Positions 53,311 through 61,545 of a DNA stretch of 64,000 nucleotides are shown piece after piece. This DNA comes from Escherichia coli (GTDB taxonomy: Bacteria; Pseudomonadota; Gammaproteobacteria; Enterobacterales; Enterobacteriaceae): assembly GCF_030384885.1 (NCBI RefSeq), contig NZ_CP128613.1; one strand, given 5' to 3'. The position numbers and the translations under genes were made by a program. The first letter of the stretch is position 1. Every line of letters begins with the position of its first letter. The notes below the pieces were generated by a model. That model did no database searches. It saw only the letters and a list, made by a program, of their open reading frames with translations, and was not told the origin of the DNA.

Positions 53311-53403
53311 GGTGAGGTGGCCGAGAGGCTGAAGGCGCTCCCCTGCTAAGGGAGTATGCGGTCAAAAGCTGCATCCGGGGTTCGAATCCCCGCCTCACCG
53401 CCA
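53311..53403 (+). tRNA. serV: tRNA-Ser (anticodon GCU)
   Basis: Cloverleaf with long variable arm, anticodon loop cuGCUaa, 3' CCA; read directly. Confidence 0.9.
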
Positions 53404-53406
53404 TTT

Positions 53407-53483
53407 GCATCCGTAGCTCAGCTGGATAGAGTACTCGGCTACGAACCGAGCGGTCGGAGGTTCGAATCCTCCCGGATGCACCA
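53407..53483 (+). tRNA. argV: tRNA-Arg (anticodon ACG), copy 1
   Basis: GCATCCG acceptor stem, anticodon loop ctACGaa, CCA end. Confidence 0.9.
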
Positions 53484-53682
53484 TATTCTCCGAAATCTTC
53501 AGCGATGAAGGTGTCGAAGAGGTGGCGGTACTAACCGCAAGCACCAGGGAGGATAACGTTGCTTTAGCAACGGGCCGAAGGGCGAGCCGTAAGGCGAGTA
53601 ATCCTCCCGGATGCACCATCTCTTACTTGATACGGCTTTAGTAGCGGTATCAAAAAATCTGCAGTAAAGTAAGTTTCCCGAT

Positions 53683-53759
53683 GCATCCGTAGCTCAGCTG
53701 GATAGAGTACTCGGCTACGAACCGAGCGGTCGGAGGTTCGAATCCTCCCGGATGCACCA
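53683..53759 (+). tRNA. argY: tRNA-Arg (ACG), copy 2
   Basis: Identical 77-nt sequence to copy 1. Confidence 0.9.
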
Positions 53760-53955
53760 TATTCTACGAAATCTTCAGCGATGAAGGTGTCGAAGAGGTG
53801 GCGGTACTAACCGCAAGCACTAGGGAGGATAACGTTGCTTTAGCAACGGCCAGAAGGGCGAGCCGCAAGGCGAGTAATCCTCCCGGATGCACCATCTCTT
53901 ACTTGATATGGCTTTAGTAGCGATATCAATATCAGCAGTAAAATAAATTTCCCGA

Positions 53956-54032
53956 TGCATCCGTAGCTCAGCTGGATAGAGTACTCGGCTACGAACCGAG
54001 CGGTCGGAGGTTCGAATCCTCCCGGATGCACC
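53956..54032 (+). tRNA. argZ: tRNA-Arg (ACG), copy 3
   Basis: Identical 77-nt sequence to copy 1. Confidence 0.9.
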
Positions 54033-54231
54033 ATATTCTACGAAATCTTCAGCAATGAAGATATCGAAGAGGTAGCGGAATTAACCGCAAGCACCAGGAA
54101 GGATAACGTTGCTTTAGCAACGGCCCGAAGGGCGAGCCGCAAGGCGAGTAATCCTCCCGGATGCACCATCTCTTATTTGATATGGCTTTAGTAGCGGTAT
54201 CAATATCAGCAATAAAGTAAGTTCTCCCGAT

Positions 54232-54308
54232 GCATCCGTAGCTCAGCTGGATAGAGTACTCGGCTACGAACCGAGCGGTCGGAGGTTCGAATCCTCCCGG
54301 ATGCACCA
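54232..54308 (+). tRNA. argQ: tRNA-Arg (ACG), copy 4
   Basis: Identical 77-nt sequence to copy 1. Confidence 0.9.
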
Positions 54309-55625: not shown

Positions 55626-57209
<1,584 letters not shown>

Positions 57210-57217
57210 CAGAAAAG

Positions 57218-57290
57218 AAAAAGGCCACTCGTGAGTGGCCAAAATTTCATCTCTGAATTCAGGGATGATGATAACAAATGCGCGTCTTTC
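57218..57290 (-). ncRNA. micA: MicA (SraD) small regulatory RNA
   Basis: Minus-strand sequence gaaagacgcgcatttgttatcatcatccctgaattcagagatgaaattttggccactcacgagtggccttttt matches MicA as I recall it; 3' hairpin plus U-tract. Confidence 0.85.
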
Positions 57291-57323
57291 ATATACTCAG
57301 ACTCGCCTGGGAAGAAAGAGTTC
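57291..57323 (-). promoter_or_regulatory. SigmaE-type promoter of micA
   Basis: Minus-strand GAACTC-N16-TCTGA immediately upstream of the MicA 5' end. Confidence 0.6.
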
Positions 57324-57358
57324 AGAAAATTTTTAAAAAAATTACCGGAGGTGGCTAA

Positions 57359-57874
57359 ATGCCGTTGTTAGATAGCTTCACAGTCGATCATACCCGGATG
57401 GAAGCGCCTGCAGTTCGGGTGGCGAAAACAATGAACACCCCGCATGGCGACGCAATCACCGTGTTCGATCTGCGCTTCTGCGTGCCGAACAAAGAAGTGA
57501 TGCCAGAAAGAGGGATCCATACCCTGGAGCACCTGTTTGCTGGTTTTATGCGTAACCATCTGAACGGTAATGGCGTTGAGATTATCGATATCTCGCCAAT
57601 GGGCTGCCGCACCGGTTTTTATATGAGTCTGATTGGTACGCCAGATGAGCAGCGTGTCGCTGATGCCTGGAAAGCGGCAATGGAGGACGTGCTGAAAGTG
57701 CAGGATCAGAATCAGATCCCGGAACTGAACGTCTACCAGTGTGGTACTTATCAGATGCATTCGTTGCAGGAAGCGCAGGATATTGCGCGTAATATCCTGG
57801 AACGTGACGTACGCATCAACAGCAACGAAGAGTTGGCGCTGCCGAAAGAAAAGTTGCAGGAATTGCACATCTAG
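57359..57874 (+). CDS. luxS: S-ribosylhomocysteine lyase LuxS, 171 aa
   Basis: [23 protein letters not shown] ... HTLEHL metal motif. Confidence 0.95.
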
Positions 57875-57887
57875 TCAATTGAAGAGG

Positions 57888-57917
57888 CCGGGCAGGTGAT
57901 ATCACCGCCCGGTTTTT
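57888..57917 (+). terminator. Rho-independent terminator after luxS
   Basis: Hairpin ccgggcaggtgatatcaccgcccgg followed by TTTTT; abuts the stop of the convergent gene at 57919. Confidence 0.75.
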
Positions 57918-57918
57918 A

Positions 57919-59031
57919 TTACCTGTCAGTCACCCGATATTCCACGCTATGTGCTTCATCAGGTTGAGGAACTTCCAGCCTTGAGGCCATCCGCATCACG
58001 ACCGCTTCAGGAACGGCATACTCGCGCCTGGCATTTTGCTGCTTCCATTGCGCCCATGGCACTTCCAGATAAACGATTTTTACTCGTGCGCCGTAAGCCG
58101 TAAACAGACTGATGAGCTGGCTACGCAGTTGGCGGGTAATGTTCGTTGCATTCCAGATGAACGGCTTTTTCTGGCGTAAAAAAACGCGCGCCTCTTCTTT
58201 TGCCTGTTGCACAATACGCCCGGTCGCGGTTTTGTCGTCCGGGCTGGCATTGATTCGCCGCCGCATATCATCAAGGCTGATAACGTCCATTCCCTGGCAC
58301 TGTTCACTGATATAGCGATCTTTGCCCATACCCGGTAAGCCACACAGCAAAATGACCTCAAAAGGTTCAGCCTCCCAGGGAACAAAATCAGGAGAACTTT
58401 GTTCATGGGTCAGATAATGCCAGCGTGCGGAATCAGACACGAACGAGCGCACTTTTCCCCAACACTGTTGCTCCTGGCAAAATAGCTCGAACAGATCGAT
58501 GCGTTCCAGCATTGATTGCTGATCATGACAATGGCGACCAAGCAGATCGGCACGAGCAAGCAAAGCGAGCAGACGCGTGTCGATACGCATTGCAGCCGTG
58601 AGCAGCAAACGCTCCGGTTCCGGACGTTCTAGTAACCATAGCGGTAACCCATGCAGACGCACCAGTGCAACAATTTGCTCGCGTAGCACGAACGGCGTCG
58701 GGATATCGCGCCATAAAATTTGTCGGGCCGTCAATTCACCCCGACGAGCATGACCAGGAGACTGAATACGTCCGTTTTCCTGCACGGTAGTACTGCGCTT
58801 TTCAACGTCATGCAATAACGCCGCCGCCCATAAAATTTCCTGCTGCTGAGCGGGGAGTTGCTGGAACTCTGGCAGAGCCACGAGTGCATTCAGCACCATT
58901 TCAGTATGCACACCAACGTCGCCTTCACCATGATGCTCCGGGTCTTGCGGCGTATTATGCATATCCTCAACCCAGCTAAAACGCTGGCGTAGCGTCGACC
59001 AGCGTTTGTCGTCGGTAAGTTGCCAAATCAT
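57919..59031 (-). CDS. HD-domain phosphohydrolase fused to a P-loop polynucleotide-kinase-like domain, 370 aa
   Basis: N-terminal HD signature ([10 protein letters not shown] ... LLHDVEK); C-terminal Walker-A-like GLPGMGKD and DVISLDD; not present between luxS and emrB in K-12 as I recall. Confidence 0.6.
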
Positions 59032-59735
59032 GACTGTTCTCCATAAGCGAACTCATGGGCCATCCGCGCCCGTCGCCAGTGGCGTTTCCAGTGCTCGGTG
59101 GTTTTGACATGATTTTTGCGTACATACTTGAAGACGTTATGCGAAAAGTCAGCGACGGAAAACGCATCACTATTCCGGCTGACAATGCCTTCCAGCGTAC
59201 AGGGTTGTCCGGTTTGCGTATCCCAGGGATCGAACGCACCGCGCGCATTGGTCAGCGCCAGAAAATCACGTTGCCAGCTTTTTTCATCATTCCCCGGCTG
59301 CGGGCCGGAGATTTCGGGAACGCAGGGGAAATCAAACAGAGCGGCGTAAAACTGCACCTCTTCCCAGCTCAGCCACATATCCTGGCAGCGAACGGCAAAC
59401 AGATAAAAATCCTGCTCCAGGGCGCGATATTCAATCGAATGAACGGCATAAAGATTTTCACCAAACAACTCCAGATCGCCGAGATCGTTTTTCAGCAGTT
59501 GCCAGCGTTGGCGAATTTTATAGGTCCATGCCGATTGTGTAGGCGCGGCATGGGAACGGGCAAACACGCCGTAGCGGTTAAGGCAGTTATTTTCACCGTC
59601 GAGTTTTTCAGTATGTACCAACTGCGAAATTGCCTGCATATCTTGCCAGTAACTGGCGTTAATGCGGTCATCGCTGGTGGTGCCAGGGGAGAAGGGGTAA
59701 TGCCAGGTTCTCCCGTATTTACGTTGGGTATTCAT
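59028..59735 (-). CDS. Small ATP-dependent nucleic-acid (RNA) ligase-like nucleotidyltransferase, 235 aa
   Basis: Covalent nucleotidyltransferase motifs in order: [41 protein letters not shown]; 4-bp overlap with the downstream gene. Confidence 0.6.
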
Positions 59736-59954
59736 AATAATCCATTATTTTTTGTGTAATAAACGTACGCCCGCGAGGGTGCGAGTTATGGGGTTAAAAA
59801 AAATGTGAGTATCACCCGCGAAAGCGAGGGCGAAGAAAAAAGAGAATTAACAACCTGAGCGAATGCTCAGAACCGGTTAATGGTGAATGGAAGAGTTTGG
59901 AGCGGCGAAAAGATACACCGTTTGAGATGATAAAACAACCGTTTACAGAATGAG

Positions 59955-59980
59955 CAAATAAAAAGGGAGCCGCAGCTCCC
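59955..59980 (-). terminator. Rho-independent terminator after emrB
   Basis: Hairpin gggagc-cgca-gctccc with U-tract on the minus strand. Confidence 0.7.
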
Positions 59981-59990
59981 TTTAACAACC

Positions 59991-61529
59991 TTAGTGCGCA
60001 CCGCCTCCGCCGCCACCTGCGCCAAATGGCGGTTTAGCAAACCACACCAGCCCCAGCAGGACGAGGAATATCCCGGCTGACATCCAGAAGATCTCATTGG
60101 CGGAAATAATCAGCCCCTGATTAGTGATCTGCTGGGCAATCCAGCCTGATGCCTGTTGTTGCGTCATCCCCAGCCCTTCCAGTTGGCTGTACATCGCCTG
60201 AGCGTTCGGGTTAAACGGGTTTACCGACTCGGTTAACTGTGCGTGGTGCATCGACTCGCGGTTAGTCCACATGGTGGTGGTGATGGATGTGCCGATAGAC
60301 CCCGCCAGCGTTCGCGTAAAGTTAGAGAGGCTCGATGCCGCCGCCAGTCGCTCCGGTGGCAAACCAGACAGCGTAATGGTGGTCAGCGGCATAAAGAAGC
60401 AGGCCACCGCGAAGCCCTGGATAAACTGCGGCCAGGCCGACGCGCCAAAATCCATCCCCGGTTCAAAGGTATAAGCACGCCAGTAGAAGCAGACGGCATA
60501 CATGATAAAGCTGAAGGTTACCAGTCGCCGCATATCCAGTTTATGCGCGAAGCGGCCGATAATCGGCGACAGGATCACCGGAATAATCCCTACCGGCGCA
60601 GAGGCAAGCCCCGCCCAGGTTGCTGTATAGCCGTAGACTTCTTGCAATAACTGCGGCAGCAGAACAATCGCGCCGAAGTAGAGCATATACGCGAGGCTGA
60701 TACACAAGCAGCCGATGGTGAAGTTGCGCGATTTAAACAACGACAGATCCACTATCGGATTATCGTCGGTCAGCTCCCAGACAATCAGGAAGCAGATAGC
60801 CACCACCGCCACCACGGTGAGGATGATTATTTCCTGCGATGAGAACCAGTCCAGCTCTTTACCGCGGTCGAGCATAATCTGCAGGCTGCCGATACCAATC
60901 ACCAGCAGTGCCAGCCCCACGGCATCAATCCGCCGCCGTTCGGTGCGGGTTTCGCGTCCGCGCAGGGTTTGCAGTGTCATCAACACCACCGCCACGCCAA
61001 TCGGCACGTTGATGAAGAATATCCAGCCCCAGTGGTAATTATCGCTGATATAACCGCCGAGGATCGGGCCGCAAATTGGCGCGACAATCACCGTCATCGA
61101 CCACAACGCCAGCGCGATCGAGCGTTTTGCTGGCGGGTAGTTATTCAGCAATAGACTTTGCGAAAGCGGGATCAACGGCCCGGCGACAATTCCCTGAATC
61201 ACGCGGAAGAAGATCAGCATATTCAGGCTGCTGGAGACACCACACGCCCACGACGCAATAGCAAAGGCGATGGTCGACCAGAGGAACAGCTTCACTTCCC
61301 CAACGCGCTTTGCCAGCCAGCCGGTAAGCGGGATCGAGATGGCATTCGCCACCCCGAAAGAAGTGATTACCCACGTTCCCTGGCTGAGCGATGAGCCCAG
61401 ATTCCCGGCGATAGTGGGGATCGCCACGTTAGCAATGGTGGAGTCCAGCACCTGCATGAATGTCGCCAGTGACAGCGCAATCGTCATAATGACCAGTTGC
61501 GCGCCTTCCAGCGGTTTTTGCTGTTGCAT
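59991..61529 (-). CDS. emrB: Multidrug efflux MFS transporter EmrB, 512 aa
   Basis: 14-TMS MFS protein beginning MQQQKPLEGAQLVIMTIALSLATF. Confidence 0.92.
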   Translation of the reverse strand: MQQQKPLEGAQLVIMTIALSLATFMQVLDSTIANVAIPTIAGNLGSSLSQGTWVITSFGVANAISIPLTGWLAKRVGEVKLFLWSTIAFAIASWACGVSSSLNMLIFFRVIQGIVAGPLIPLSQSLLLNNYPPAKRSIALALWSMTVIVAPICGPILGGYISDNYHWGWIFFINVPIGVAVVLMTLQTLRGRETRTERRRIDAVGLALLVIGIGSLQIMLDRGKELDWFSSQEIIILTVVAVVAICFLIVWELTDDNPIVDLSLFKSRNFTIGCLCISLAYMLYFGAIVLLPQLLQEVYGYTATWAGLASAPVGIIPVILSPIIGRFAHKLDMRRLVTFSFIMYAVCFYWRAYTFEPGMDFGASAWPQFIQGFAVACFFMPLTTITLSGLPPERLAAASSLSNFTRTLAGSIGTSITTTMWTNRESMHHAQLTESVNPFNPNAQAMYSQLEGLGMTQQQASGWIAQQITNQGLIISANEIFWMSAGIFLVLLGLVWFAKPPFGAGGGGGGAH

Positions 61530-61545
61530 CACACGCACCTCTGGA

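Follow-up and report, generated by a model that had tools for sequence, protein, structure and literature searches.

A LIG/HD-Pnk gene pair between luxS and emrB of Escherichia coli: a probable two-protein system for healing, and presumably sealing, nucleic-acid ends

In Escherichia coli K-12 the genes luxS and emrB are neighbours, and in MG1655 their junction consists of a 63-bp spacer without any gene. The 64,000-nucleotide stretch of E. coli DNA analysed here (contig NZ_CP128613.1; hereafter the window) carries at the same junction two overlapping genes on the minus strand, which raises the question of what this cassette encodes and what it does for the strains that possess it. The sequence-only reading of this DNA had described the operon, the adjacency of luxS and emrB in K-12, a ligase-like protein of 235 aa and a 370-aa fusion of an HD domain to a P-loop kinase, and all of these elements were confirmed. 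It had not recognised the pair as a named system, and on this point it has to be corrected. The cassette belongs to the LIG/HD-Pnk family, known from Runella and, as DRB0100/DRB0098, from Deinococcus (PMC6097658, in the passages that describe the pair; PMC1997131; PMC6300522). The family was described between 2007 and 2018 and the E. coli cassette is an unstudied member of it; in the literature searched, no mention of luxS, emrB and 'RNA ligase' together was found. The presented results indicate, with a probability of about 0.8, that these two genes are the LIG/HD-Pnk operon of E. coli, whose two proteins would act together to heal broken nucleic-acid ends and presumably to seal them.

Judged from its sequence and its structural model, the 235-aa protein (LIG) is a covalent nucleotidyltransferase-type ligase protein with K44 as the motif I lysine. 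The Pfam profile RNA_ligase (PF09414) covers residues 38-205 (model positions 2-171 of 171, E 5.3e-28), and no NCBIfam model matched LIG. Motif I reads T42-E-K44-L-D-G-E-N49. In the alignment of 31 homologs, K44, D46, G47 and N49 are invariant, as are R60/S61 of motif Ia, E93/N94 of motif III, F113 of motif IIIa, E182/G183 of motif IV and K203/V205/R206 of motif V. The same alignment reveals two conserved segments specific to the family, the N-terminal KYxRxxHxPxSPGxxxDDR and the C-terminal HVxTxxHW. The AlphaFold2 (AF2) model forms one compact domain with a mean predicted local distance difference test score (pLDDT) of 86, and its top matches in a Foldseek comparison with the PDB are all RNA ligases (probability 1.00), DNA ligases scoring lower. 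These matches include NgrRnl of Naegleria, T4 Rnl2 together with its isolated nucleotidyltransferase domain (1s68), the ligase domain of Trl1 and archaeal Rnl. In the larger ligases the alignment with LIG is confined to the nucleotidyltransferase part, with TM-scores of ~0.5 by query (TMq) and 0.3-0.4 by target (TMt). The appended domains of the ligase clades, C-terminal in Rnl1/2/3/4/6 and N-terminal in Rnl5, have no counterpart in LIG, which is therefore filed under none of the clades Rnl1-Rnl6. The sole matches of LIG in a sequence search of the PDB (phmmer) were mollusc hemocyanins, with whole-sequence E-values down to 3e-9. They were rejected as spurious, because they sum many weak repeat matches, each with an independent E-value (i-Evalue) of at least 0.2; their source is a repeated W..W.E.Q.Y-like segment.

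On the same kinds of evidence, the 370-aa protein (HD-Pnk) combines an HD phosphohydrolase and a P-loop polynucleotide kinase in one fusion. The Pfam profile AAA_33 covers residues 226-355 (E 6.6e-32), and the HD profile gives a weak match to residues 61-139 (E 0.014). The NCBIfam model bacter_Pnkp is matched by the kinase region only (model positions 9-137 of 851, E 2e-8, 32.9 bits at a cut-off of 750), and the N-terminal part gives weak matches to HDIG and to the HD region that belongs to the CCA-adding enzyme of E. coli (E 6e-5). In 40 homologs, with identities down to 30%, the HD-domain residues Q29, H34, E36, H42, H74-D75, K78, H94, H127, D162 and R166 are invariant, and so is R303 of the kinase domain. 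The P-loop residues G231..G236-K237, D254/R257 of the SLD..R motif, N294-ATN297 and R336 are kept in at least 90% of them. The closest solved sequences are the Pnkp kinase of Clostridium thermocellum (4gp6, E 2e-4) and T4 Pnk. The AF2 model (pLDDT 96.5) has an all-helical N-terminal half, which resembles the class II CCA/A-adding enzyme 3wfp, and a C-terminal half for which Foldseek returned CthPnk (TMt 0.75, root-mean-square deviation 2.3 A), T4 Pnk and mouse PNKP. The order of HD domain and kinase, the length of 370 aa, the full-length homology to the characterised DRB0098 and the position of the gene, directly downstream of a ligase gene and overlapping it, are all features of HD-Pnk.

The two open reading frames (ORFs) are real genes and not a product of chance, because both have Pfam matches, both are annotated in RefSeq and both show a low ratio of nonsynonymous to synonymous substitution rates (dN/dS 0.08-0.13 against other E. 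coli alleles). As far as such sequence comparison tells, they are under purifying selection. E. coli strain 2013C-4282 is 100% identical to the window throughout the cassette region (57800-59990), and its RefSeq labels are 'RNA ligase family protein' for LIG and 'ATP-binding protein' for HD-Pnk. The ATGA overlap between the stop codon of the first gene and the start codon of the second suggests translational coupling, and an abutting or overlapping arrangement recurs in most of the 80 related loci described below.

The layout of the cassette corresponds to that of the characterised relatives. In the passages of PMC6097658 that describe it, HD-Pnk of Runella slithyformis joins an N-terminal HD 2',3'-phosphoesterase and a C-terminal 5'-OH kinase in one polypeptide, its gene lies directly downstream of a putative ATP-dependent ligase ORF that overlaps its start, and the ligase formed enzyme-AMP and left the substrates tested unjoined. 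The layout in the window is identical, with the 3' end of LIG overlapping the start of HD-Pnk. Unlike in Runella, neither Tpt1 nor methyltransferase-HIT genes adjoin the pair in E. coli, and in Spirosoma the genes upstream of the pair are not Tpt1 or methyltransferase-HIT either. The window HD-Pnk is 50-60% identical to homologs from Bacteroidota, among them those of Spirosomaceae, the family to which Runella belongs. The primary description of the Runella pair is reportedly that of Munir and Shuman in 2017 (J Bacteriol 199:e00739-16), and its abstract is said to state that HD-Pnk strips 2'-phosphate too.

In Deinococcus radiodurans, DRB0100 is an adenylation domain alone; AMP is bound to its K40, and the K40A change abolishes adenylylation (PMC1997131). 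DRB0098, later named D. radiodurans HD-Pnk (PMC6300522), is an HD-plus-kinase protein with 5'-kinase activity that phosphorylates a DNA oligonucleotide (PMC1997131, PMC6300522). For a direct comparison of the proteins, the DRB0100-DRB0099-DRB0098 operon was taken from megaplasmid MP1. LIG is 36% identical to DRB0100 over the full length (E 2e-28), with K44 aligned to K40, and HD-Pnk and DRB0098 share 29% identity over residues 5-361 (E 3e-31), H74-D75 falling on H81-D82 in the alignment. The gene order, with the ligase (LigB/DdrP) first and HD-Pnk last, is that of the window, but in Deinococcus the two are separated by DRB0099, a TIGR02452 family protein according to NCBI and a poly-ADP-ribose glycohydrolase in the literature. 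Moreover, the Deinococcus operon is radiation-induced and tied to DNA-damage resistance. Identity between the two sets of proteins is low, and the E. coli genes fall in a different, tightly conserved clade.

The wider family was described by a scan of 1.84 billion representative proteins, with clusters at 50% identity and E <= 1e-30. HD-Pnk gave 581 clusters, and nearly all of the 150 best listed were full-length (340-450 aa). Enterobacterales and Bacteroidota share an unusually tight clade that includes the E. coli proteins; the homologs in Chryseolinea, Adhaeribacter, Chitinophaga and others are 55-60% identical to HD-Pnk and 63-64% identical to LIG. Synteny was compared at 80 HD-Pnk loci of seven phyla, drawn from Enterobacterales, Bacteroidota, Cyanobacteriota, Chloroflexota, Bacillota, Acidobacteriota and Myxococcota. 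A LIG homolog accompanies HD-Pnk in 76 of the 80, nearly always directly upstream and co-oriented. Genes of RNA repair recur in the vicinity: rtcB at nine loci, prfH at five and an RlaP-like gene, identified by eye from the sequence, also at five, while six have a methyltransferase with faint similarity to Hen1. In Serratia the genes form a cluster rtcB2-prfH-LIG-HD-Pnk (NCBIfam release_rtcB 584 bits, release_prfH 305 bits). This cluster recurs in Adhaeribacter, where the ligase gene is called as two pieces, and rtcB2-prfH stands directly upstream and co-oriented in several other Bacteroidota too (Serratia/Adhaeribacter loci: L014 3480-7116; L094 3520-7116; L006 5009-9110). RtcB2-PrfH is experimentally established as a system for the rescue and repair of ribosomes cut by colicin E3-type toxins (PMC9304027). 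Because LIG/HD-Pnk clusters recurrently with rtcB2-prfH and the RlaP-like gene elsewhere, RNA repair is favoured, the preferred target being ribotoxin-cut RNA. The sequence-only reading had named tRNA or mRNA as a possible substrate; the RNA part of this proposal gains from these neighbours, but Deinococcus genetics indicate DNA-damage resistance, and the substrate may be RNA or DNA.

The division of labour between the two proteins can be outlined from homology to the Runella and Deinococcus enzymes. The HD domain, together with a transition metal, would convert 2',3'-cyclic, 3'- and 2'-phosphate ends to hydroxyls, and the C-terminal P-loop domain would phosphorylate 5'-OH ends with the gamma-phosphate taken from an NTP, with D254 as the putative general base and K237 and the Walker A loop holding the NTP. 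The net healing by HD-Pnk would be the conversion of 2',3'-cyclic-phosphate, 3'-phosphate and 5'-OH ends to 3'-OH and 5'-phosphate. LIG, as its conserved residues also suggest, would form K44-AMP and might then pass AMP to the healed 5'-phosphate and seal it to the 3'-OH. For these later steps LIG probably depends on HD-Pnk as its partner, or on a structured substrate of a specific kind, since it is a nucleotidyltransferase domain alone, without a substrate-binding domain. Translational coupling and the near-obligate pairing across phyla are consistent with such a partnership. The healing-and-sealing idea put forward from the sequence alone is also the one published for the family, although the studied ligases of this group self-adenylated without joining the substrates tested.

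Several observations weigh against this reading. The sealing step is conjectural, because the Runella and Deinococcus ligases self-adenylated without joining the DNA or RNA substrates tested; DRB0100 in particular joined neither (PMC1997131). The Walker A motif of HD-Pnk (window 58321-58341, residues 231-237) reads GLPGMGKD, with Asp for the usual Ser/Thr, and is thus GKD and not the canonical GK[S/T]; GKD is found in most of the HD-Pnk family and GKS in the Deinococcus enzyme. The likeness to the Runella pair is one of published layout and domains. The title of the 2017 HD-Pnk paper reportedly speaks of a DNA/RNA end-healing enzyme, and the only in vivo phenotypes of the family, those of D. 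radiodurans, indicate DNA damage and not RNA. The E. coli cassette itself has no adjacent RNA-repair gene. Finally, not every copy in E. coli is intact: in EcN_Sk the ligase gene (L003 5233-5930) is frameshifted by a 10-bp deletion while HD-Pnk is intact, and in 3 of 40 evenly sampled carriers the span is shortened to 1807 bp from 1817 bp.

Comparison with other repair systems helps to place the cassette. T4 Pnkp with Rnl1/Rnl2 follows the same logic and the same end chemistry: a 5'-OH kinase and a 3'-phosphatase come first, and an ATP-dependent ligase then works on the 3'-OH/5'-PO4 ends. The fold of the window kinase matches T4 Pnk, and that of LIG the nucleotidyltransferase domain of T4 Rnl2. 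However, T4 Pnkp has a HAD/DxD phosphatase fused on the C-terminal side of the kinase, the window protein an HD domain on the N-terminal side, and the T4 ligases have C-terminal domains that LIG lacks. Pnkp/Hen1 of C. thermocellum and Pnkp1-Rnl-Hen1 are bacterial healing-and-sealing systems, directed against ribotoxin damage, and the CthPnkp kinase domain (4gp6) is the closest solved relative of the window kinase. Pnkp is, however, one kinase-metallophosphoesterase-ligase polypeptide that needs the Hen1 methyltransferase. The E. coli system has an HD phosphoesterase, a separate ligase protein and no adjacent Hen1, and neither the ORFs nor the annotation of the luxS-emrB interval include a methyltransferase. 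The cassette had also been called a candidate split Trl1-type system from its sequence. With Trl1 of fungi and plants it shares the ligase, kinase and cyclic-phosphate esterase functions, but the chemistry is wrong. Trl1 unites in a single polypeptide a ligase that has its own distinctive C-terminal domain (Rnl6 clade) and a 2H cyclic phosphodiesterase, which leaves the 2'-phosphate that its ligase requires. The E. coli cassette consists of two proteins, its ligase has no extra domain, and an HD esterase stands instead of 2H, HD-Pnk being described as a phosphate-removing 2',3'-phosphoesterase. This esterase activity, together with the 2'-phosphate removal that it is said to include, would therefore produce 3'-OH/5'-PO4 ends in the style of T4 and CthPnkp. 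RtcB2-PrfH likewise handles breaks that end in 2',3'-cyclic-phosphate and in 5'-OH (PMC9304027, PMC9223846) and forms one cluster with LIG/HD-Pnk in Serratia and several Bacteroidota. RtcB, however, joins the 3'-phosphate directly to the 5'-OH with GTP and without end healing, and rtcB2-prfH is not adjacent to the E. coli cassette.

Within E. coli the luxS-emrB junction is polymorphic, as was revealed by a presence/absence survey of the kind that the sequence-only reading had proposed. The cassette was found in 999 of 5426 complete genomes (~18%), always as a single chromosomal copy and never on a plasmid; K-12 is without it, and the carriers include the extraintestinal pathogenic E. coli (ExPEC) strains IHE3034 and APEC O1:K1:H7. 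The window allele is divergent, being ~94% identical to the common allele, with flanks that differ by ~3% from K-12, and EcN_Sk carries the cassette though its flanks match K-12 at 100% over 7.3 kb. Synonymous divergence (dS) of the cassette genes is 0.17-0.28, comparable to that of luxS (0.14-0.16). The GC content resembles that of the flanks, without compositional anomaly, no terminal direct or inverted repeats were found at the cassette borders, and no integrase, mobility genes or other marks of a mobile element were found at the cassette. Escherichia albertii and Citrobacter europaeus have the cassette at the same emrB-luxS locus, and this shared position suggests that it is ancestral to E. 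coli, E. albertii and Citrobacter and was replaced by the short spacer in ~80% of E. coli, including K-12. The luxS-like dS, the common locus across genera and the lack of terminal repeats and mobility genes point to an old, vertically inherited locus and not to a recent insertion. The 63-bp K-12 spacer (L002 5076-5138) has a terminator hairpin of its own, and judged from sequence, spacer and cassette look like alternative alleles. A simple excision of the cassette in K-12 was considered and rejected, the spacer being unrelated in sequence to either cassette end. In C. europaeus HD-Pnk is separated from luxS by an extra porin gene (Porin_8; L007 7361-8728); other cargo can thus enter this intergenic position too.

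The alternatives differ in what they make of the two enzymes. The main rival, unlikely in our judgement and kept alive by Deinococcus genetics, holds that the operon mends not RNA but DNA strand breaks whose ends are 'dirty' (3'-phosphate, 5'-OH) after oxidative damage, radiation or clastogens, a role proposed for the DRB0100-DRB0098 operon of D. radiodurans. The window proteins are full-length homologs of DRB0100 and DRB0098, and the latter accepts a DNA oligonucleotide. The D. radiodurans operon is induced by radiation, mutation of DRB0098 confers sensitivity to ionising radiation and mitomycin C, and one study reports DNA ligation by DRB0100 with DRB0098 and PprA present (PMC6300522). However, LIG falls in the RNA_ligase family of Pfam, its best structural matches are RNA ligases, and the recurrent neighbours elsewhere are rtcB2-prfH and the RlaP-like gene. 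The E. coli proteins are, moreover, 27-36% identical to those of Deinococcus but 55-64% identical to the clade of Bacteroidota and Enterobacterales with its RNA contexts, and no LexA-box-like site was seen in the leader by eye, a formal test not having been made. A reading that we consider somewhat less likely still regards LIG as an adenylyltransferase that halts at AMP transfer, to an end (adenylylation or capping) or to another molecule, while HD-Pnk prepares or reverses the mark. LIG is without every appended domain used elsewhere for substrate binding and step 2, and the isolated nucleotidyltransferase domain of T4 Rnl2 is defective in step 2; both studied homologs, too, gave enzyme-AMP and no ligation product. 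The negative assays, however, covered few substrates and left out the partner protein. All ligase motifs, including IV and V of the later steps, are invariant across phyla, and the pairing with an enzyme that yields 3'-OH/5'-PO4 ends suits a sealing enzyme.

The polymorphism of the locus bears on two lesser rivals. The sequence-only reading had also suggested phage defence or counter-defence. In this view the cassette would be no housekeeping-type repair system but a module for defence against phages or for abortive infection, or else a set of counter-defence genes that a phage has left. A 462-kb uncultured megaphage (LR756500.1, 24519-26287) does encode LIG (39% identity) and HD-Pnk (35%) side by side, LIG homologs occur in jumbo phages as well, and both proteins are matched by PHROG families; the megaphage pair fits the RNA-repair repertoire known for such large phages (PMC7824862). 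Presence in some E. coli and absence from others would also suit a phage-related role. But neither protein matched PADLOC-DB 2.0 at E <= 0.01, no nuclease or toxin partner is present, and the single copy at one core-genome locus, never on a plasmid, bears no repeats, integrase or compositional trace of mobility. The luxS-like dS and the position shared with E. albertii and Citrobacter argue for vertical descent, and a phage-conflict role is considered improbable. The least probable reading, to which we give very little credence, is that the cassette is a decaying remnant without current function in E. coli. About 80% of complete genomes are without it, the frameshifted EcN_Sk allele and the shortened carriers have lost sequence, and a consensus promoter was not found. 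However, the window and most carriers have two intact ORFs, every catalytic residue is kept, dN/dS is low, and the upstream region is conserved across genera. Non-sealing adenylyl transfer, phage conflict and decay are all less likely than the healing and presumed sealing of ends by a LIG/HD-Pnk operon.

The features of the locus are collected in Table 1. The leader upstream of LIG is conserved in blocks in E. coli/Escherichia, Citrobacter and Salmonella, that is, in closely related genera only. It is kept in Salmonella contigs even where the upstream gene is not emrB, and therefore appears to belong to the cassette and to move with it. Its folding is somewhat better than that of shuffled sequence (minimum free energy z-score -2.67). 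No Rfam match was found in the leader, no sigma-70 consensus was found upstream of LIG on the minus strand, and no LexA box or sigma-54 promoter was seen in the leader by eye, without a formal test. From its conservation, the leader may be a cassette-specific regulatory element. The emrB terminator is kept in Citrobacter with one compensatory change in its stem. The palindrome between the stop codons of luxS and HD-Pnk, probably a terminator by its sequence, is present in the EcN_Sk allele and is not the same as the hairpin of the K-12 spacer.

Table 1. Coordinates of the cassette, its predicted domains and its flanks in the window
Feature	Position	Strand	Description
LIG ORF, 235 aa	59028..59735	-	minimal ATP-dependent polynucleotide (RNA) ligase-like; nucleotidyltransferase domain only
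HD-Pnk ORF, 370 aa	57919..59031, stop codon included	-	predicted bifunctional end-healing enzyme
HD phosphohydrolase domain, ~aa 1-210	58402..59031	-	predicted 2',3'-phosphoesterase; invariant HD residues, all-helical model
P-loop 5'-OH polynucleotide kinase domain, ~aa 222-370	57922..58368	-	predicted; Walker A, profile and fold matches
ATGA overlap of LIG stop codon and HD-Pnk start codon, 4 nt	59028..59031	-	ORF coordinates
Conserved upstream leader/promoter region, ~230 nt	59736..59960	-	block conservation; putative role
Hairpin in leader, conserved stem, variable loop	59854..59871	-	sequence comparison
emrB intrinsic terminator	59962..59983	-	9-bp stem, then T run; divides emrRAB from cassette
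emrB	59991..61538	-	flank on LIG side of cassette
GC-rich palindrome, then T run (GCCGGGCAGGTGATATCACCGCCCGGTTTTTATT)	57887..57918	.	between convergent luxS and HD-Pnk stop codons
luxS	57359-57874	+	flank on HD-Pnk side of cassette

Two further elements were recorded outside the cassette. The small RNA MicA lies at its expected position between gshA and luxS (window 57219-57290, minus strand; Rfam RF00078, 83.9 bits) and is the only Rfam match in 57200-60100. A tRNA-Ser/tRNA-Arg x4 array occupies window ~53311-54308, where the Arg genes are ~275 nt apart; in MG1655 and EcN_Sk the spacings are partly ~140 nt, so the length of the repeat unit differs among strains.

Summarizing, the E. coli cassette is not a new kind of system, and the gain for annotation is that 'ATP-binding protein' should become HD-Pnk. 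E. coli is usually assumed to be without a polynucleotide kinase and an ATP-dependent RNA ligase, and this assumed absence was used as a purity argument in PMC1997131; about one fifth of the complete genomes nevertheless appear to encode both. What a ligase without any appended domain seals, RNA or DNA, has been studied only in Runella and Deinococcus. E. coli, with strains that have or lack the pair, with colicins, contact-dependent inhibition (CDI) toxins and anticodon nucleases, and with its genetics, would be convenient for finding the substrate of LIG. A concrete hypothesis for this search follows from the clusters with rtcB2-prfH in Serratia and Bacteroidota, namely that the substrate is ribotoxin-damaged RNA of the translation machinery. 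A more specific version, which is tentative and on balance unlikely, is that LIG is inactive alone and a true RNA ligase in complex with HD-Pnk, repairing one ribotoxin lesion such as tRNA or 16S rRNA cleaved by a colicin or CDI toxin. If this were true, E. coli would be naturally polymorphic for toxin resistance, with the cassette present in ~18% of genomes, including ExPEC, and absent from K-12, and the conserved 230-nt leader would be a damage-responsive control element.

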